DNA of 34,873 bases from Tortispora ganteri. Its lineage: Eukaryota. The notes below the pieces were generated by a model that ran no database searches, was not told the origin of the DNA, and saw only the letters and a program-made list of their open reading frames with translations. Location: NCBI GenBank assembly GCA_003707115.1, contig PPNB01000002.1, positions 682,001-716,873 on the forward strand. The letters are read 5' to 3'. This document shows, piece after piece, positions 5,339 through 24,588 of the stretch (the stretch's first letter is position 1; each line of letters opens with the position of its first letter). The position numbers were made by a program, and so were the translations under genes.

Positions 5339-6908
<1,570 letters not shown>

Positions 6909-12841: not shown

Positions 12842-14110
12842 TTATAAACATCCAGGACAGTTGTGCAACAGATCATGCGCAAATATATCACAGTCTAGAC
12901 AGAACGTGTTGGAACATTTAGGGCATATGCAAGACGTTGTGTTAATGGGTATAGTGCTCTGACATGCATGACATGAAGTAGTTTCAGGGGTATCTATTTC
13001 TTTCCATGATTCCAGGGGTACAAGGTGATGGAAAGATCTTGCTAAGTGTGTGGATAAAATCAATGTTAATGAACAAATAGGGCACTCGACAGGGAGGAGT
13101 GGAACTTTTGCATTACAATTAGGACAGAGATACCCTCCTTTGGAGAGAGAACTGTCGATAGATGAGAAAGAAGCGACCTCATATGTTTTTCGACTTGGAA
13201 ACCCCATTTTCACTAAAGCCGAAAAAGTTTGATCCTTAGTGGAGTTTGGTTTGATAGTAGCTGGAGGTGTTGTGGCTTCATGAAGCAAGTCTTTGTAATT
13301 GGCTTCATTTAGAATCACACCGTAGTATTTTTCCGAGCCTGAATTGGTTCTTTTGCAGATTTCTGAACATATGAGTACTTGCGCCGCTAGTCCTATGATT
13401 CTGACTCGTATTTTGTCATGAACCAGTGCATCGATCGTCTTATAGATATCGCCAGGGTCGTTAGTGACGAGCGATCCGTAAATAATAAGCACTTCCTTGA
13501 GTCCGTGAGACGGCAGATGGTAAAGCAATGCTCTAGCCATTTCAAGGGCATTTTGCAGAGATGGGGCACCCCTTGGCTCGGATCGCGCAGAATCATTGCG
13601 CAGGTCTCGCAGGGCCTGTGTATGGTCATGCGGGCTGCCTCCTAAAGGAGATATCACATGACTAATGCCGTCTCGCATGCCTAGAATAGCCATTTGAGAC
13701 AATGGATTCTGTTCGAAAAATTCAGTAACAAATTCAACTGCATAATTGTATGTGAGTATGGCACGCGTTGGACGTATATCCTTTTCTGACATACTATCGC
13801 TCATATCGATAACAAGAACCATATGGCGTATGATTCCACGCTGCACAGGCGTGGCATCAACAAAGCGACGCCGTTTAGAAGACTCTAGAAGACCTGCAAC
13901 CGCTGTTGCTAGCGATCCTGCTTCGTCCTCTTGCACAGTATCCCATGTTCTCTGAATGCGGTCTTCCCATGCATACGGCGCAGCGATTGCACTTTGCGCA
14001 GCAGATCTTCGCGTGCCATTACTTCTAGACCTCCGTGAAGACGTTCGAGCAGAATTGTTTAGATTTATACCTTCGTTATCTGATGCAACATACTCCCCGT
14101 CAGAATCCAT
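12842..14110 (-). CDS. SSL1: TFIIH subunit Ssl1/p44
   Basis: YAWE..IQRTW, vWA domain (QRGIIRH, EFFEQNPLSQM, PSLQNALEMA), C4 zinc finger, STHLARSFHHLVPL and C-terminal C1-like domain (FCLDCDIFAHDLLHNCPGC). Confidence 0.96.
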   Translation of the reverse strand: MDSDGEYVASDNEGINLNNSARTSSRRSRSNGTRRSAAQSAIAAPYAWEDRIQRTWDTVQEDEAGSLATAVAGLLESSKRRRFVDATPVQRGIIRHMVLVIDMSDSMSEKDIRPTRAILTYNYAVEFVTEFFEQNPLSQMAILGMRDGISHVISPLGGSPHDHTQALRDLRNDSARSEPRGAPSLQNALEMARALLYHLPSHGLKEVLIIYGSLVTNDPGDIYKTIDALVHDKIRVRIIGLAAQVLICSEICKRTNSGSEKYYGVILNEANYKDLLHEATTPPATIKPNSTKDQTFSALVKMGFPSRKTYEVASFSSIDSSLSKGGYLCPNCNAKVPLLPVECPICSLTLILSTHLARSFHHLVPLESWKEIDTPETTSCHACQSTIPINTTSCICPKCSNTFCLDCDIFAHDLLHNCPGCL

Positions 14111-14588
14111 TCCTACCAGAATCAGCTTTTTGTAATGTCTTTCTACTGGCTAGATTGCTCTGCCGGTTTGACCTTTCACTTCAAAATAATCAGGGTTAGG
14201 TGTTGCTACGGCCCTCCTTTTTGTGCCTCTTATAAGGGCGAAACAACTTTCCCCCTTAGACACTGAACTTATACTTGTATCGCTATTACTTTGTTAAGTG
14301 TAGTAATAGCTATTTTATCGATCAGGTATTTGCATAAAAAAAAAAATAGAATAACTATCGTTTTCAGTGTTTAGTTTATCGCTATTATACGCTTATCCAC
14401 AGTTTTACTGATTGTGCTGTGTGGCTACAGTGAAGCTACTATTGACTTTCTCTTCCCCCCACATATACACAGATTTGGACAATTACACGAACGCGCCAGA
14501 CGCCCACTATCGTCCCGCACATTCCACGAAAACTTGCTGGATCCTCGGTATTTTGCTCGTATATTTTTAGATCTGGTGTCTTGATTTT

Positions 14589-14621
14589 ATGCCGCACTTT
14601 TTATTGTCCCTATTAAAATAG
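14589..14621 (+). promoter_or_regulatory. Candidate uORF (MPHFLLSLLK*) upstream of the sugar porter
   Basis: The only + strand ATG between 14138 and 15355; whether it lies inside the transcript is unknown. Confidence 0.35.
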
Positions 14622-15355
14622 TTGAAAAAAAGCTCAGTTCGTTACTTCTGCTAGTCGGTCTCCTTTTCCCTTATCCAATCGGCACGGCTAATTTGGTACA
14701 TTTTGCATAAACAAAATCAACCGACGCACCCTCCACGGTATATCAGAAAGTCACGAATCCGTTATCGAACTCGTAATCGGACCCTTAATAACGCTTTAGC
14801 ATTTACCAAAGCCTAAACAGTTAAGCGTTCCTGCTATCGCTGAAAGATATCTACCTTTCATTGACATAAGTTTCGCTTTTCCTCCCCTTCGTTCTGATAT
14901 CATAACGACTGGGTTACTGGGGTCACTTTATTACCCTTGCTATCCCGGTTCTCTTCAATTATCCCGTGTCTGTGAACGCTTCTAATTCATTGGACCAACT
15001 CGGCATACGTGCCAGGCGGTCATCTTCGAATTTCCCTATTGGTTCTCAATCAGACTCGTCTTTATCTCTGAGTGAACTAGATTGTGATATTGTAGATCAA
15101 TCTAATAGACAAGTTTCTTTTGCGTTCCCTGATTTTTTGTCAGACGAAGAAGCCCAATTTTTAAGCTCAGATTCATCAGACGAGGTCCTTGCCGACGATT
15201 CGTCTACTGGAGTATACCTTCACAGATATCCTTCCTCAGGTTCTTCTACAAACCCGCGAAAGAGAGTTCATCATCATAAGTACAAATTTGAAATTGCTAT
15301 ACCTGAACCTCAATTCCCTGTCGCTCCTGCTATTTCCCGAATTTTAGATACCATT

Positions 15356-17122
15356 ATGTCTGCTATCGCTGGTCCCGATCCGCATGTTCGCAAATCCCCT
15401 GTCGCAAAAGGTCTAGTGGGAAAGCGACTCCTTTATTTTACTTCCATTTTTGTCTCACTAGGTGTGTTCTTATTTGGATATGACCAGGGTGTCATGTCTG
15501 GAATTATAACTGGGCCATATTTTAAAGATCAGTTTAACCAACCTACTAGTGCTCAGCTTGGTACAATGGTGGCAATTCTTGAAATTGGTGCTCTTTGTTC
15601 CTCTTTAGTGGTGGGCAGAATTGGTGACATTATAGGTCGTCGCAGGACTATTTTATGGGGTGCCCTCATATTTGTTCTCGGAGGTGCCTTTCAAACTATC
15701 GCTACTCGCATGTTTGTACTTATAATTGGTCGCGTCATTTCTGGTGTTGGCGTAGGTTTGTTGTCTACAATTGTTCCTGTTTATCAGTCAGAAATATCCC
15801 CGCCCCATAATAGAGGCAAGCTCGCTTGCATAGAGTTTACTGGCAATATTGTTGGTTATGCCTCTTCCGTTTGGGTTGACTATGGTTGCTCATATATACA
15901 GTCGAACTTATCTTGGCGCATTCCTTTGGGATTGCAATGTATAATGGGAACATTACTTCTATTCGGGAGTCTCATAATATGTGAAAGCCCACGATGGCTC
16001 TTAGACAATGACCATGACGAGGAAGGAATGATTGTCATTGCTAGTTTATATGGCCATGGTGATATTTATCATCCTCGTGCGCGACAAGAATACCGTGATA
16101 TCAAGGAAAATGTTTTGATTATGCGTGCTGAAGGCGAACGGTCTTATTTAGACATGTGGAAGCGTTACAGGCGTAGAGTGCTTATTGCTATGTCATCCCA
16201 AGCATTTGCTCAACTTAACGGTATTAATGTTATTTCTTACTATGCGCCTCTTGTATTCGAGCAAGCAGGATGGGTAGGACGAGACGCAATTTTGATGACC
16301 GGCATAAATGGCATAGTTTATGTGTTGTCGACTATCCCTCCATGGTACTTGGTAGATCACTGGGGCCGAAGAGTCATTTTACTTTCTGGTGCAGTTGGTA
16401 TGTGCATTTCCTTGTGCACCATTTCATATTTCATGTATTTGGATATATCACTGACGCCAGCTATGGTAGTTGTGTTTGTTATCATATACAATGCATTTTT
16501 TGGTTACTCATGGGGACCAATTCCTTGGTTATACCCACCTGAAATCATGCCATTAAGCATTCGCGCCAAAGGTGCATCATTATCTACTGCGTCTAATTGG
16601 GCATTCAATTTTGTTGTAGGTGAAATGACTCCTATTTTACAAGATTTGATTGCTTGGAGATTATATTTGGTTCATGCTACCTCGTGTGCACTTTCCTTTC
16701 TTTTGGTTTACTTTGTTTACCCTGAAACTAAAGGTGTACAACTTGAGGATATGGATCTTTTGTTTGGCGATCAATCAATTGCCACCACTCCGTTCGACCA
16801 GCGTTCACTAATGTCGTCTGAAGGACCAAGCGGCCCAGGTGCCGCTGAATCAGCCATGTTTGGCGCGAACAATCCTTCACTAGCAGCGGCTCTTGCTGCT
16901 GCTGAACGAGAACAGTTTGATGGTGCTTCACTGAGAGCTGGCTCTATTCGCTCTTCTAGGACTGGTGTTAGCATTAGCGCACAGGATGTGGAACCTCCTG
17001 AAATATCTCATGACACGGTCAGATCACATACTGACCACCGAGCTAGTCAAGTCCTGAACAGCGTGTTTAGCGTATTCTCAAAAAAGAATAAAGAGAGTGG
17101 ATACCAGCCACTTGATAGATAA
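15356..17122 (+). CDS. MFS sugar porter-family transporter (frame open upstream to 14906 without ATG)
   Basis: FGYDQGVMSG, GDIIGRRR, VPVYQSEISP..RG, ESPRWL, QLNGINVISYY, WGPIPWLYPPEI and PETKG motifs; first ATG at 15356; ~130-aa C-terminal tail. Confidence 0.92.
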   Translation: MSAIAGPDPHVRKSPVAKGLVGKRLLYFTSIFVSLGVFLFGYDQGVMSGIITGPYFKDQFNQPTSAQLGTMVAILEIGALCSSLVVGRIGDIIGRRRTILWGALIFVLGGAFQTIATRMFVLIIGRVISGVGVGLLSTIVPVYQSEISPPHNRGKLACIEFTGNIVGYASSVWVDYGCSYIQSNLSWRIPLGLQCIMGTLLLFGSLIICESPRWLLDNDHDEEGMIVIASLYGHGDIYHPRARQEYRDIKENVLIMRAEGERSYLDMWKRYRRRVLIAMSSQAFAQLNGINVISYYAPLVFEQAGWVGRDAILMTGINGIVYVLSTIPPWYLVDHWGRRVILLSGAVGMCISLCTISYFMYLDISLTPAMVVVFVIIYNAFFGYSWGPIPWLYPPEIMPLSIRAKGASLSTASNWAFNFVVGEMTPILQDLIAWRLYLVHATSCALSFLLVYFVYPETKGVQLEDMDLLFGDQSIATTPFDQRSLMSSEGPSGPGAAESAMFGANNPSLAAALAAAEREQFDGASLRAGSIRSSRTGVSISAQDVEPPEISHDTVRSHTDHRASQVLNSVFSVFSKKNKESGYQPLDR

Positions 17123-21217: not shown

Positions 21218-22444
21218 ATGTCGGGATTCACCAGATACACTATCCCGCCGCTTGAAGATCATGTAGACTCTTACTCGTTTCAAGATCCAGATGATGACAT
21301 ATTTGCATTAGCTCCCAAAACAGATCCGGATGATTCGGAACTCTACCCGACTGAACTGCCGCCTTATCTTCGAGATCGAACCACAGCGTTTGCTGAAGAT
21401 CTTACTGCGCCTGTACTGAAAGCACCATTGACACCACAAGAGCTGTCGGACAAGTTTCAGAAGTTCTATAGTGAAATTGAACAATGCGCGCTCGAAAAGC
21501 TTAGCGAATCGCATTTCGAGCCGGAAATGCAGCTACGTACCGCTAAAGAGGCTCAAAAAGTGAAAGCTATGATCTGCAATAAAGATAAAATTGCTTTGAC
21601 TTTTGTTGCTTTGGCACAGACTGACGTATGCACACAACTATATAGTAGATTGATCACTCTCCAGACTTCTGGAGACGCAGAGAAAGACGCAATTATAGCG
21701 CAACGGTGTGCATTCTTACGGAAAATATCATTTTCTTTAGAAAACTTGTCTTTGCCTGCCAAAGAAGTTTCCAAACCAGATCTTAATAAATGTGTTTCCA
21801 TTTTAGCTACTATAAACGATTGCACTACTCCTGAAGCGAAGCTTGATGTTATTGTTAAGACGCATAAAGCAATAGCAGATTTCCACTCGTCTCCTAATGC
21901 CGATGCATTGTTACCCTTATTCATCTACACTCTTATCTACATAGAAGTGGATAACATGTTCTCCAATATAGAATATATTAGGCGGTTTCTCTATACTAAA
22001 TTTCTGAATGGGTTATCGCAATACTGCCTCACTACTGCAGAAGCGGCTTTGCAGTTTGTTATGAACCTGGATATGGCGCAATTTAATTCCGACTGTGAAT
22101 GGGATTCTTTTATTTCTCACACTACTGTGAGTGATGTGAAAGAGGATAAACCAGTAGCTCCTCTTCCGGCGGTTTCTTCGTCAAGAGGACTGTTTGGCTT
22201 TTTTTCATCTCCAGAGACACCCTTTAGACCAATCGGTGCGACTCTGGAGAACTCGTATAGATATTTGTCATCAAAAAAACGGACAGACTTAGAACCGGAC
22301 AAGAAACCAACGGCTAAAATCGGAAAACCAATTGATAAATTTCTGCGCAAGAATGCGTCTGATATTACGATCAGCGAAGTTCACGAACTTCTTCAGGACT
22401 ATCAGCGTCTAGTGAAAGAGCTGAAGGATTGTGGACTGTTATGA
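21218..22444 (+). CDS. VPS9-domain Rab5-family GEF (Muk1-like)
   Basis: TPEAKLDVIVKTHKAI, NADALLPLFIYTLI, SNIEYIRRF and YCLTTAEAALQF; C-terminal DITISEVHELLQDYQRL. Confidence 0.85.
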   Translation: MSGFTRYTIPPLEDHVDSYSFQDPDDDIFALAPKTDPDDSELYPTELPPYLRDRTTAFAEDLTAPVLKAPLTPQELSDKFQKFYSEIEQCALEKLSESHFEPEMQLRTAKEAQKVKAMICNKDKIALTFVALAQTDVCTQLYSRLITLQTSGDAEKDAIIAQRCAFLRKISFSLENLSLPAKEVSKPDLNKCVSILATINDCTTPEAKLDVIVKTHKAIADFHSSPNADALLPLFIYTLIYIEVDNMFSNIEYIRRFLYTKFLNGLSQYCLTTAEAALQFVMNLDMAQFNSDCEWDSFISHTTVSDVKEDKPVAPLPAVSSSRGLFGFFSSPETPFRPIGATLENSYRYLSSKKRTDLEPDKKPTAKIGKPIDKFLRKNASDITISEVHELLQDYQRLVKELKDCGLL

Positions 22445-23222
22445 TATTTTTGCATTCGAAAGACGAAATTCTTTCATCAGGATTGAGTCTAAGCATCATG
22501 GTGAGTAATTTTAACAGCATTGTGTCGATTTCGGGACACATTCTAAGAATGAATTTTGTTGTTGTTTGATCGCACGCATCAGGTACGTCATGTGGACGCG
22601 ATAATCTTTCTCCTATAAATGAGTTAAAGTATTGTGGCCAGTTATTCTTGTTCGGGAATCCGAAATCTTTAAATATACGACTAATGACCTGCATTTTAGA
22701 GACTGCTGGCGGCGTCTGTTTGGCTGCCTTGAATTCAATGTATACTAAACCGAGCGACCATACGTCTGTCTTGCACGAATAGGGACAGTTAAATAACATC
22801 TCTGGTGAAGAATAATTAATTGTTCCAGAATATTCTTGCACATTTGTAATGAGCGTAGCTGATCCAAAATCGATTAGTTTCACAGAACCATGACGATCAA
22901 TAAGTATATTAGACGGTTTGATATCTCTATGTATAATTCCTATGCTATGAATATAAGAAAGCGCTTCTATAAGCTGTACTAAAATTGTTTCTGCTAATAG
23001 AGGCGTTGGATTGATGGACTCGATGTACTCGTAGATTATCGTAGATTCACAGTCGATATAAGCCAGCGGTGTAAGGATATTAGGGTGTGAGAGTTGCTTG
23101 ATAATATTAGATTCATAATTGTAATCATTAATGTAATTAAATATTTTATATACAGCTTCTTTTGATTTATATGTGCCTTTTTTAATGGTTGAATAAGGTG
23201 TTTGAGAAAGGATCTTGTTCAT
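22371..23222 (-). CDS. Ser/Thr protein kinase, CDK-related, probably Cak1/Csk1-type
   Basis: HRDIKPSN, DFG, GTINYSSPE, DVWSLG and LNPDERIS; no GxGxxG loop; first ATG at 23222. Confidence 0.75.
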   Translation of the reverse strand: MNKILSQTPYSTIKKGTYKSKEAVYKIFNYINDYNYESNIIKQLSHPNILTPLAYIDCESTIIYEYIESINPTPLLAETILVQLIEALSYIHSIGIIHRDIKPSNILIDRHGSVKLIDFGSATLITNVQEYSGTINYSSPEMLFNCPYSCKTDVWSLGLVYIEFKAAKQTPPAVSKMQVISRIFKDFGFPNKNNWPQYFNSFIGERLSRPHDVPDACDQTTTKFILRMCPEIDTMLLKLLTMMLRLNPDERISSFECKNIITVHNPSALSLDADSPEEVRELR

Positions 23223-23265
23223 AAAACCGAGGATGATGTGTAAAGGAAAAGTGAACCTTCGATTA

Positions 23266-24588
23266 ATGTTTAACAAATCAGTTTTACGCTGTTCACGACA
23301 TATTCTGTGGTCACAAACTAAATCAACATTTAGATATAAATCAACTTTAAGCGATTATTTAAGAAATGTTATAGAAACAACTGGACCTATCACGCTTGCT
23401 GCCTATATGCGACAATGTCTAACTCATCCGCAGTACGGATACTATACTAGTCGTGATCCTCTTGGCAAGGACTTTATAACGTCACCTGAAATCAGTCAAA
23501 TGTTTGGAGAAGTGATCAGTATCTGGTATTTTGTTCAATGGGTACAGCAGAATACCCCTAAATCTTCTAGGATTGTCGAAATAGGTCCTGGCAGAGGAAC
23601 ACTAATGGCCGACATGCTAAGAGCATGGAGTAAAGGGTCTAGTCTCAGGTCTTTCCTTGATTCAATTAACGATATAACAATGATCGAAGCGAGTCATCAT
23701 TTGTTGAAAAAACAACATGCATTATTATGTGGTTCTAACCCGCTAAAAAAGACAGACACTGGTTTTGCTTCTACAACTATAATAGGCAAAAAACCGATAT
23801 ACTGGCACGAAGCCATCACTGACATTCCTTCTGATCTCCCCGTGTACATGATGGCGCATGAATTCTTTGACGCTTTACCGATTCATTCATTTGAAAAGAC
23901 ATCGTCCGGATGGAGAGAACTTTTAGTCGATTATGGCATCGAACCAGACCCGCCATCGTCTCTTTCATTGCCCGGCCAAACTGTCATCAAGACCGCTACA
24001 CACAAACAATCTACATTTCATATTGTTCAGGCAAAGTCAGAAACGCTTTCTAGCAAGCTACTTTCTAGTTCAAAACGCTTTGATTCGCTAAATATCGGTT
24101 CACGTGCTGAAATCTGTCCCGAGGCATTAAACTATGTTGTTCAACTAAGCAACATCATATCTCCATCTGCTCATGGAGCCCTGCTCGTTATAGATTATGG
24201 TGCAGATACTATCCCTGCTAATACTTTCAGAGCCTTCTTTGAAGGCAAAGTAGTCAACCCGTTTGCTAACCCTGGAGAAGCTGATCTTACTGCCGACGTT
24301 GACTTTGGTGCTTTGCGTGAAGCAATAATAAATCAATGTCCTGAAATGGCCGTTCAAGGACCAGTCGAACAGGGCTCTTTTCTGTTATCTTTAGGTATTC
24401 AAACTAGAGCTATGAGACTAGTCGACTCAAAAACAGATGACAATGACAAAAAGAGGATTTTCGACGCATACAAGAGACTTATCGAACGGTCAGGAGGATC
24501 TATGGGCAAAACATACAAGGCATTGGCTATTATTCCTAAACAATTCGCATCTACGGATTTATTGGGATTCGGAGGTACATTTGAATAG
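23266..24588 (+). CDS. NDUFAF7: Mitochondrial protein arginine methyltransferase NDUFAF7/MidA
   Basis: YMRQCLTHPQYGYY, DFITSPEISQMFGE, EIGPGRGTLMAD, AHEFFDALP and DLTADVDF. The start could also be ATG 23233 or 23236. Confidence 0.92.
   Translation: MFNKSVLRCSRHILWSQTKSTFRYKSTLSDYLRNVIETTGPITLAAYMRQCLTHPQYGYYTSRDPLGKDFITSPEISQMFGEVISIWYFVQWVQQNTPKSSRIVEIGPGRGTLMADMLRAWSKGSSLRSFLDSINDITMIEASHHLLKKQHALLCGSNPLKKTDTGFASTTIIGKKPIYWHEAITDIPSDLPVYMMAHEFFDALPIHSFEKTSSGWRELLVDYGIEPDPPSSLSLPGQTVIKTATHKQSTFHIVQAKSETLSSKLLSSSKRFDSLNIGSRAEICPEALNYVVQLSNIISPSAHGALLVIDYGADTIPANTFRAFFEGKVVNPFANPGEADLTADVDFGALREAIINQCPEMAVQGPVEQGSFLLSLGIQTRAMRLVDSKTDDNDKKRIFDAYKRLIERSGGSMGKTYKALAIIPKQFASTDLLGFGGTFE

Follow-up and report, generated by a model that had tools for sequence, protein, structure and literature searches.

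Could a sugar porter gene of Tortispora ganteri begin far upstream of its first ATG? Within the window (the whole 34,873-nt stretch analyzed here, positions 682,001 to 716,873 of contig PPNB01000002.1; coordinates below are those of the window and lie on its forward (+) strand unless marked (−)), the main ORF opens at a conserved AUG, spans 15356..17122, and encodes a 588-aa sugar porter that retains the TM1 Asp. The first in-frame ATG is at 15356, and the frame runs uninterrupted from 14906 to the stop at 17120–17122. The AUG-free part of this frame (14906..15355), limited upstream by an in-frame TAA (14903..14905), would add an N-terminal extension of up to 150 aa, and it offers the in-frame near-cognate codons CTG 14909, ATT 14930, and GTG 14966. 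The initial annotation had reported this 150-codon frame, its stop, and its near-cognate codons, together with RRSS (aa 37–40), RQVSF (aa 68–72), an acidic Ser patch, RKRVHHHKYKFEIAIP (aa 118–133), and a C-terminal YQPL, and each of these is indeed present in the sequence. We consider it likely that the region encodes an ancient extension, initiated at a near-cognate codon and belonging to one ascomycete porter orthogroup, and that leaky scanning yields two isoforms.

Measured against ~200 kb of T. ganteri DNA (20 stretches of 10 kb) plus nine paralogue loci and the window, the 150 codons above the first ATG are the maximum among 105 sampled ORFs (median 12), and the 767 nt from the porter ATG to the nearest upstream ATG in any frame are the maximum of 104 (median 102; runner-up 753), with a single-locus chance of ~1e-4 for each. 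Seven T. ganteri paralogues have 2–54 codons above the first Met. ATG is absent from every frame between 14592 and 15355, and the stretch 14150–15355 contains 1 ATG compared with 17 CAT, this sole ATG opening an out-of-frame 10-codon uORF (14589..14621). Furthermore, codons 30–150 of the frame score at the median of 342 coding windows, a level reached by 1 of 85 noncoding windows, and a change point in codon usage (15 bits in total) falls at codons 5–61 (5–95% interval). Judged from these sequence features, the 150-codon AUG-free frame looks protein-coding.

The 588-aa ORF matches Pfam Sugar_tr (PF00083) with 368 bits (cut-off 22.3) and TIGR00879 with 341 bits (cut-off 237.8), its closest solved structure is the plant STP10 (Foldseek top match), and it belongs to the sugar porter (SP) family of the MFS (TC 2.A.1.1), sharing its 12-TM core fold and its signature motifs. 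The closest named protein is a partial model from Tortispora caseinolytica, 98% identical and without a start of its own. The label of T. reesei Stp1 was considered and rejected, as the residue numbers given in the available part of the relevant report (PMC4642563) did not fit by hand comparison. In a quick tree built from 76 core sequences, the branching agrees with that of the species and the basidiomycete-like rows fall outside; therefore, the porter sequences form one orthogroup, in which no characterized member was found. The YQPL near the C-terminus (17102..17113), which the initial annotation had read as a YxxPhi signal, is conserved as a motif class, 103 of 121 homologues having a YxxPhi among their final 30 residues, and a conserved Tyr-x-x-hydrophobic motif in a cytosolic tail suggests a YxxPhi-sorted membrane protein. 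Upstream of the porter lies a divergent gene at 12842–14110 (−), presumably TFIIH p44/Ssl1-like, with ~800 nt between its ATG and the top of the extension frame. Elsewhere in the window, what we take to be a DAHP-synthase-like ORF (5339–6508 (−)) shows an open stretch of 113 codons ahead of the first in-frame ATG, due to a 5′ intron (GTAAGC...ACTAAC...TAG), and the stop-to-stop frames of a presumed kinase-like ORF (22371–23354 (−)) and a presumed methyltransferase-like ORF (23206–24588 (+)) overlap head to head, with hardly any gap between their ATGs.

Is the extension present in other fungi? Among 80 related fungal loci from a metagenome scan, which are phylogenetically non-independent, 49 contain the whole extension (43 distinct and 6 duplicates) and 11 are cut inside it. 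Ten non-ascomycete-like loci either have no extension or show an in-frame fusion to another porter; at four loci (L082, L083, L084, and L087), the orthologue and the C-terminal half of another sugar porter upstream share one open frame, which suggests a tandem two-transporter fusion in a non-ascomycete-like lineage. Eight loci resisted automatic parsing, and the three of these that were viewed comprised two truncated extensions and one locus without any. Two ascomycete-like loci, one yeast-like and one Sordariomycete-like (L014 and L024), have no extension, through loss or because they are paralogues, so the extension is dispensable in some lineages; the leader of L024 is likewise long and ATG-poor. 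Seven genomic loci (L019, L023, L026, L027, L029, L030, and L033) do not have the intron that follows GLxGKxL in most filamentous relatives.

In these relatives, purifying selection acts on the extension at the protein level. The initial annotation had named frame conservation and dN/dS in fungal relatives as a check on its proposal, and the frame is kept, with extension dN/dS values of 0.09–0.29 in 12 of 13 pairs and one pair saturated (“core” dN/dS values were excluded, being corrupted by introns). Mismatches at codon positions 1/2/3 number 114/95/394 in the extension compared with 36/43/44 just above the AUU. Indel lengths at the nucleotide level did not discriminate, multiples of three making up 5 of 18 in the extension versus 9 of 42 upstream. 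Across 19,038 nt of extensions, there are 9 ATG against 269 CAT. The length of the extension ranges from 91 to 193 aa, mostly 131–164, with which the 130–150 aa suggested for T. ganteri is consistent.

The start in the relatives was placed at the Ile or Met where conservation begins; its amino acid is therefore set by design, and the codon and its context are the tests. The codon is ATT in 41 of the 43 distinct loci, ATG in one (L035), and either ATC or a strong-context GTG close by in one (L022). The flanking bases hardly vary: position −4 is C in 42/43, −3 is A in 40/43, and +5 is C in 42/43. By comparison, the other Ile codons of the extensions are 179 ATC, 56 ATT, and 48 ATA, and of 28 codons for the Ile in NIPL, which is just as conserved, 1 is ATT. 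Two loci have an in-frame stop three codons above the AUU. By best match, the ATT loci fall nearest to Dothideomycetes (24), Leotiomycetes (7), Sordariomycetes (7), and Eurotiomycetes (3). The AUG that replaces AUU at L035:2444-2446 stands in a weak context and is a natural exchange of start type. L022 (2935-2946) has a short extension (~91–94 aa) with a strong-context GTG and then EQITLP, resembling the “MEVPL” starts of P0012 and P0015, two yeast-like proteins; GUG may be the codon used in early lineages.

Just above the AUU, most relatives share a small hairpin, GGRCUG-loop-CAGYCC, of 6–7 bp, which ends ~12–14 nt above the AUU. Its 5′ motif is present at 27 of 33 dereplicated loci compared with 7 of 264 control windows, and it is found in all three frames, so the motif is not coding. 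Over 27 distinct rows, 88% of the cells are paired and 15 are compensated (slid controls, 27–56%), and none of 500 shuffles reaches the covariation score. As the structure was derived from the same sequences that were counted, and just 3 of the 7 pairs reappeared with RNAalifold, this support is good but not independent. Neither the AUG locus L035 nor L022 has the hairpin; a family model misses these two and L026, and its extra matches are close kin of the training loci and hence not independent. Rfam gave no match at gathering score in 5 loci, and a downstream hairpin at +12..+62 was not supported in the family (mean z −0.16). In the relatives, the hairpin probably adjusts the frequency of initiation at the AUU.

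The T. ganteri extension can be joined to this family through its C-terminal end. Its last 25 residues align with the orthologues in exact register before the conserved Met, and in a 33-sequence alignment, P133 and M151 are invariant, with I130, I132, and I150 nearly so; P133 stands 18 residues ahead of Met151 in T. ganteri as in the family. An ungapped profile of the 25 pre-Met residues, built without the T. ganteri sequence, gave it a score reached by 43 of 100,000 shuffles and by none of 104 other pre-ATG regions. An HMM of ten yeast-like homologues matched the extension with an E value of 1.6e-6 (0 of 3000 shuffles), and the score of a Pezizomycotina HMM was reached by 2 of 2000 shuffles; against aa 1–110 alone, the latter gave 1.3 bits. 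Statistically clear homology is confined to the last 25–40 aa. A phmmer query with aa 20–152 returned no match among 318 candidates, no Pfam or NCBIfam family covers the extension, and the ESM Atlas, queried with one relative's extension, gave no usable match. A search with a yeast-like extension found itself and one other protein only, and YKFEIxIP is common to T. ganteri and one homologue.

The conserved motif of the peptide is KFEIAIPEP (15284..15310), of the form IxIPxP, and the FEIAIP that the initial annotation had singled out thus proved to be a conserved element; we presume that IxIP could also be read as a calcineurin PxIxIT. Beyond it, AlphaFold2 predicts an amphipathic helix over aa 142–155 (15329..15370; hydrophobic moment 0.66) that spans the main Met, and ahead of it, disorder over aa 1–124. 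By alignment, RKRVHH (15257..15274) is the counterpart of the family's KRVRY/KRARF, a basic motif of the K-R-[VA]-x-[YF]-like type present in 38 of 43 extensions by a loose pattern, and in T. ganteri, it has no aromatic residue. The acidic Ser block (15164..15202) corresponds, in the alignment only, to the family block WSDTGDLAEQLADEEDPL. In the MAFFT alignment, RRSSSNFPI (aa 37–45; 15014..15040, ending in ATT 15038) lies opposite the family block RRPANIPL, a correspondence that is weak when taken by itself. The two signaling readings of the initial annotation did not carry over to the family. RRSS, taken as a PKA-type site, is not conserved as such: RRx[ST] occurs anywhere in the extension in 19 of 43, and RRSS aligns with RRPA. 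Likewise, RQVSF (15107..15121) is RVxF-like at a position that is not conserved; the strict motif ([RK]x0-1[VI]{P}[FW]) is found in 4 of 43 extensions and RQVSF is off the aligned site, so a PP1-docking RVxF protein is not supported. Most likely, the tail would govern the sorting, turnover, or activity of the long form, and fungi with the extension probably produce the transporter in a longer form as well, under regulation of its own.

Taken together, a misannotated non-AUG extension is very well supported for the family, where the relatives strongly support the core of the original proposal, and well supported for T. ganteri, where homology and codon usage agree. Which codon, then, might T. 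ganteri use? The first 100 codons contain no near-cognate codon in a strong context, the best contexts being those of ATT 14930 and TTG 14990, at the 20th percentile of the genome's AUG contexts. Our best guess, with somewhat less than an even chance of being right, is ATT 14930..14932 (weak context, U at −3), which is preferred because it is the family's codon, gives an extension of 142 aa in line with family lengths, and follows a −12 kcal/mol fold, the last argument being post hoc. A start there places ITLAIP in alignment with the family's first IP. Codon usage alone, through its change point, puts most weight on the rival starts GTG 14966 and GTG 14972 (14966..14974), which have a poor context, and ATT 15038 is a third candidate. 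The fold in question is a predicted hairpin at 14881..14922 (−12.0 kcal/mol, core 14885–14913), just above ATT 14930; a second one, at 14993..15021 (−12.9 kcal/mol), lies upstream of ATT 15038 and downstream of both GTGs. These are the only two windows of the leader that fold at ≤ −12 kcal/mol (background, 12 of 528), with weak shuffle z values of −0.8 and −1.5, respectively. The family hairpin+AUU model (R1) found no match in the T. ganteri leader; the hairpin above ATT 14930 is possibly an analogue of the family hairpin, not related to it in sequence.

How have databases dealt with this extension? Many orthologue annotations carry 100–250 extra N-terminal residues that share the blocks IP..RRPANIPL, SDFSxWSDTGDLAEQLADEEDPL, KRVRY, KEDIxIPxP, and the helix before Met, and upstream of the first IP, the annotated N-termini are unrelated to each other. 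In 9 of 120 database matches, the protein is fused to an upstream mitochondrial carrier. Such unrelated N-termini and carrier fusions are the signature of gene finders seeking a missing AUG, and the fused models are probably annotation artefacts of its absence. Models that fuse the extension to upstream genes are P0058, P0060, P0061, P0066, P0072, P0078, P0091, P0101, and P0113; P0103 and P0122; and P0055, the upstream genes being PF00153, PF03641, and PF12271. A profile search with the extension yielded 176 representatives; among the 150 matches listed, 138 run, as judged by pattern, into the TM1 junction, the remaining 12 being truncated or variant. Where the start could be read (55 profile matches), it is Ile in 49 and a Met at or near the same place in 6, and a comparison of P0006 with P0124 shows that a database “M” start can be a gene-caller GTG/TTG. 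The missing AUG explains the erratic database models, with their invented N-termini and carrier fusions, and such fusions could flag further hidden non-AUG starts. Furthermore, the long isoform would be overlooked in expression tests that rely on the annotated AUG form.

We propose the following course of events. Scanning ribosomes would first reach an inefficient start, which in filamentous ascomycetes would be the AUU in its strong context, and in T. ganteri, a near-cognate codon within 14909–15040, most likely ATT 14930. The fraction that initiates there would make a transporter of ~730 aa, whose tail would be mostly disordered, with Ser, acidic, and basic stretches, followed by an IxIPxP strand and the amphipathic helix adjoining TM1. 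The remaining ribosomes would scan through the ATG-purged stretch to the conserved AUG and produce the 588-aa form. In the relatives, the small hairpin ~12–14 nt above the AUU would tune its use. Leaky scanning past the inefficient start and on to an AUG in good context best accounts for all the features and predicts two isoforms.

Could the long form instead be the sole or dominant product, with the “main” Met an internal residue of the helix? Met151 does lie within a predicted helix with conserved residues on both sides, and exclusive UUG/GUG initiation has been described, in the accessible part of that work, for Kluyveromyces ISC1 (10.1101/2022.03.25.485750). Against this, ATG has been purged from all frames of the extension, as expected with scanning to the AUG; the main AUG has a purine at −3 in 32 of 33 loci; the AUG that replaces AUU in L035 has a weak context; and lineages without the extension start at the main Met. 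We therefore regard sole use of the long form as improbable, and two isoforms as the better reading.

It is very unlikely that the T. ganteri frame itself is an untranslated relic, is bypassed by an internal transcription start, or is used over only its last ~20–60 codons, for example, from ATT 15293. That codon is the sole near-cognate one in a strong context, at the 74th percentile of AUG contexts, compared with weak contexts for all the candidates upstream; the leader lacks the family hairpin, and the clear homology is near the Met. However, coding-like codon usage extends far above 15293, to the change point, the first codon of the IxIP motif is the one at 15293, and there are matches to the family among the basic residues further up. 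Moreover, an unused frame should not remain open and ATG-free over such an evolutionary distance.

An ordinary two-exon gene, with the T. ganteri extension spliced to an upstream AUG exon, is highly improbable, although 5′ introns of this genome do produce similar false extensions: five other long upstream frames were inspected, and all five were 5′ introns, with GTA[ACT]GT/GTAAGC donors and ACTAAC branch sites. The stretch 14871–15013 is also free of AG, with CTAAT at 14982 and CCAG at 15012–15015. On the other hand, 14150–15360 contains no GTA[ACT]GT, GTAAGC, or GTGAGT donor and no CTAAC branch site, signals of the kind that the inspected introns have. The sole upstream ATG (14589) belongs to the 10-codon uORF, which lacks a donor that could be used, and the other ATGs are located within or next to the divergent neighboring gene. 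In a relative, the mRNA-type contig L020 and genomic L049 agree at each of the 212 nt above the AUU, and a downstream intron is removed in L020, so there is no splice to an AUG exon at that locus. Splicing of this kind, which the initial annotation had named among the findings that would overturn its proposal, is thus disfavored both by the lack of canonical signals in 14150–15360 and by the unspliced relative. Finally, a chance open frame in a long 5′ leader deserves next to no weight: short motifs do arise by chance, and RQVSF and RRSS are not conserved, but in-register homology, coding-like codon usage, and family-wide selection have already largely refuted it.

Could the hairpin and the AUU together form an ascomycete-wide translational switch, in which scanning dynamics set the ratio of the plain to the long form, and the long form is rerouted or acts as a sensor? 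We regard this as possible but doubtful. In such a switch, a hairpin on the exit side of the 40S subunit might, speculatively, tie AUU use to helicase and ATP supply and hence to carbon status, and the tail blocks (NIPL, DTGD, the basic motif, and IxIPxP with the helix) might reroute the transporter or turn it into a sensor. If true, it would represent a new natural class of start-site element, in which a hairpin sits 5′ of a near-cognate codon and which misannotation has concealed in many fungal genomes. Like the T. ganteri porter, the glucose transceptors Snf3 and Rgt2 have long cytosolic tails. Snf3/Rgt2-type transceptors signal through their long C-terminal tail, with little or no transport.

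How does the porter compare with known non-AUG starts? To our knowledge, few fungal genes have a non-AUG start that is deeply conserved, and full-text searches of the literature yielded no account of either this extension or the hairpin, although genome-wide Ribo-seq tables and subscription journals could hold one. The closest known case is the Neurospora/Pezizomycotina cpc-1, which, in the available part of its report (PMC5487733), has conserved near-cognate starts (ACG, AUU, and CUG) in good context. Both extensions are conserved at the protein level, and in both cases automated annotations include the extension and leave its start unresolved. However, cpc-1 encodes a bZIP factor, has uORFs, and offers several near-cognate codons as alternatives (PMC5487733), whereas the porter is a 12-TM transporter for which, in the relatives, a single AUU is nearly invariant and is preceded by a conserved hairpin. 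The ascomycete extension of cpc-1 is reported as confined to Pezizomycotina (PMC5487733), whereas that of the porter reaches early-branching yeasts; that report, in its available part, makes no mention of transporters.

Dual-start fungal aminoacyl-tRNA synthetases offer a second comparison (PMC7049704, in the part accessible to us). The ArgRS of Cryptococcus has a strong-context AUU upstream of an AUG reached by leaky scanning, as proposed for the porter of the relatives, and the exchange between a weak AUG and near-cognate codons reported for fungal synthetases in evolution fits the weak-AUG swap at L035. The synthetase extensions are mitochondrial targeting peptides on soluble enzymes, whereas the porter extension is ~140 aa long, acidic and Ser-rich with internal conserved blocks, and sits on a membrane transporter. 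Kluyveromyces ISC1 shares with the porter a conserved non-AUG yeast start and a misannotated AUG; in the accessible part of that work (10.1101/2022.03.25.485750), out-of-frame AUGs block scanning to the annotated AUG. In the porter, ATGs are purged, which favors two isoforms.

The hairpin also has a counterpart, in engineered 5′UTRs. According to the available part of a single-molecule study of start-proximal hairpins (10.1101/2021.12.08.471614), those placed immediately 5′ of a start form again close to the exit channel, leading to back-scanning and rescanning, and their effect plateaus near −12 kcal/mol. The hairpins seen here are likewise 5′ of a proposed start and in the ~−12 kcal/mol range. 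The hairpins of that study are engineered and reduce initiation at the codon next to them, and yeast shows selection against such hairpins, whereas the hairpin of the fungal porter family is natural, conserved, and 5′ of a near-cognate codon. The porter would extend the known systems to a membrane transporter, one whose AUU is nearly invariant in four classes and is preceded by a conserved hairpin.
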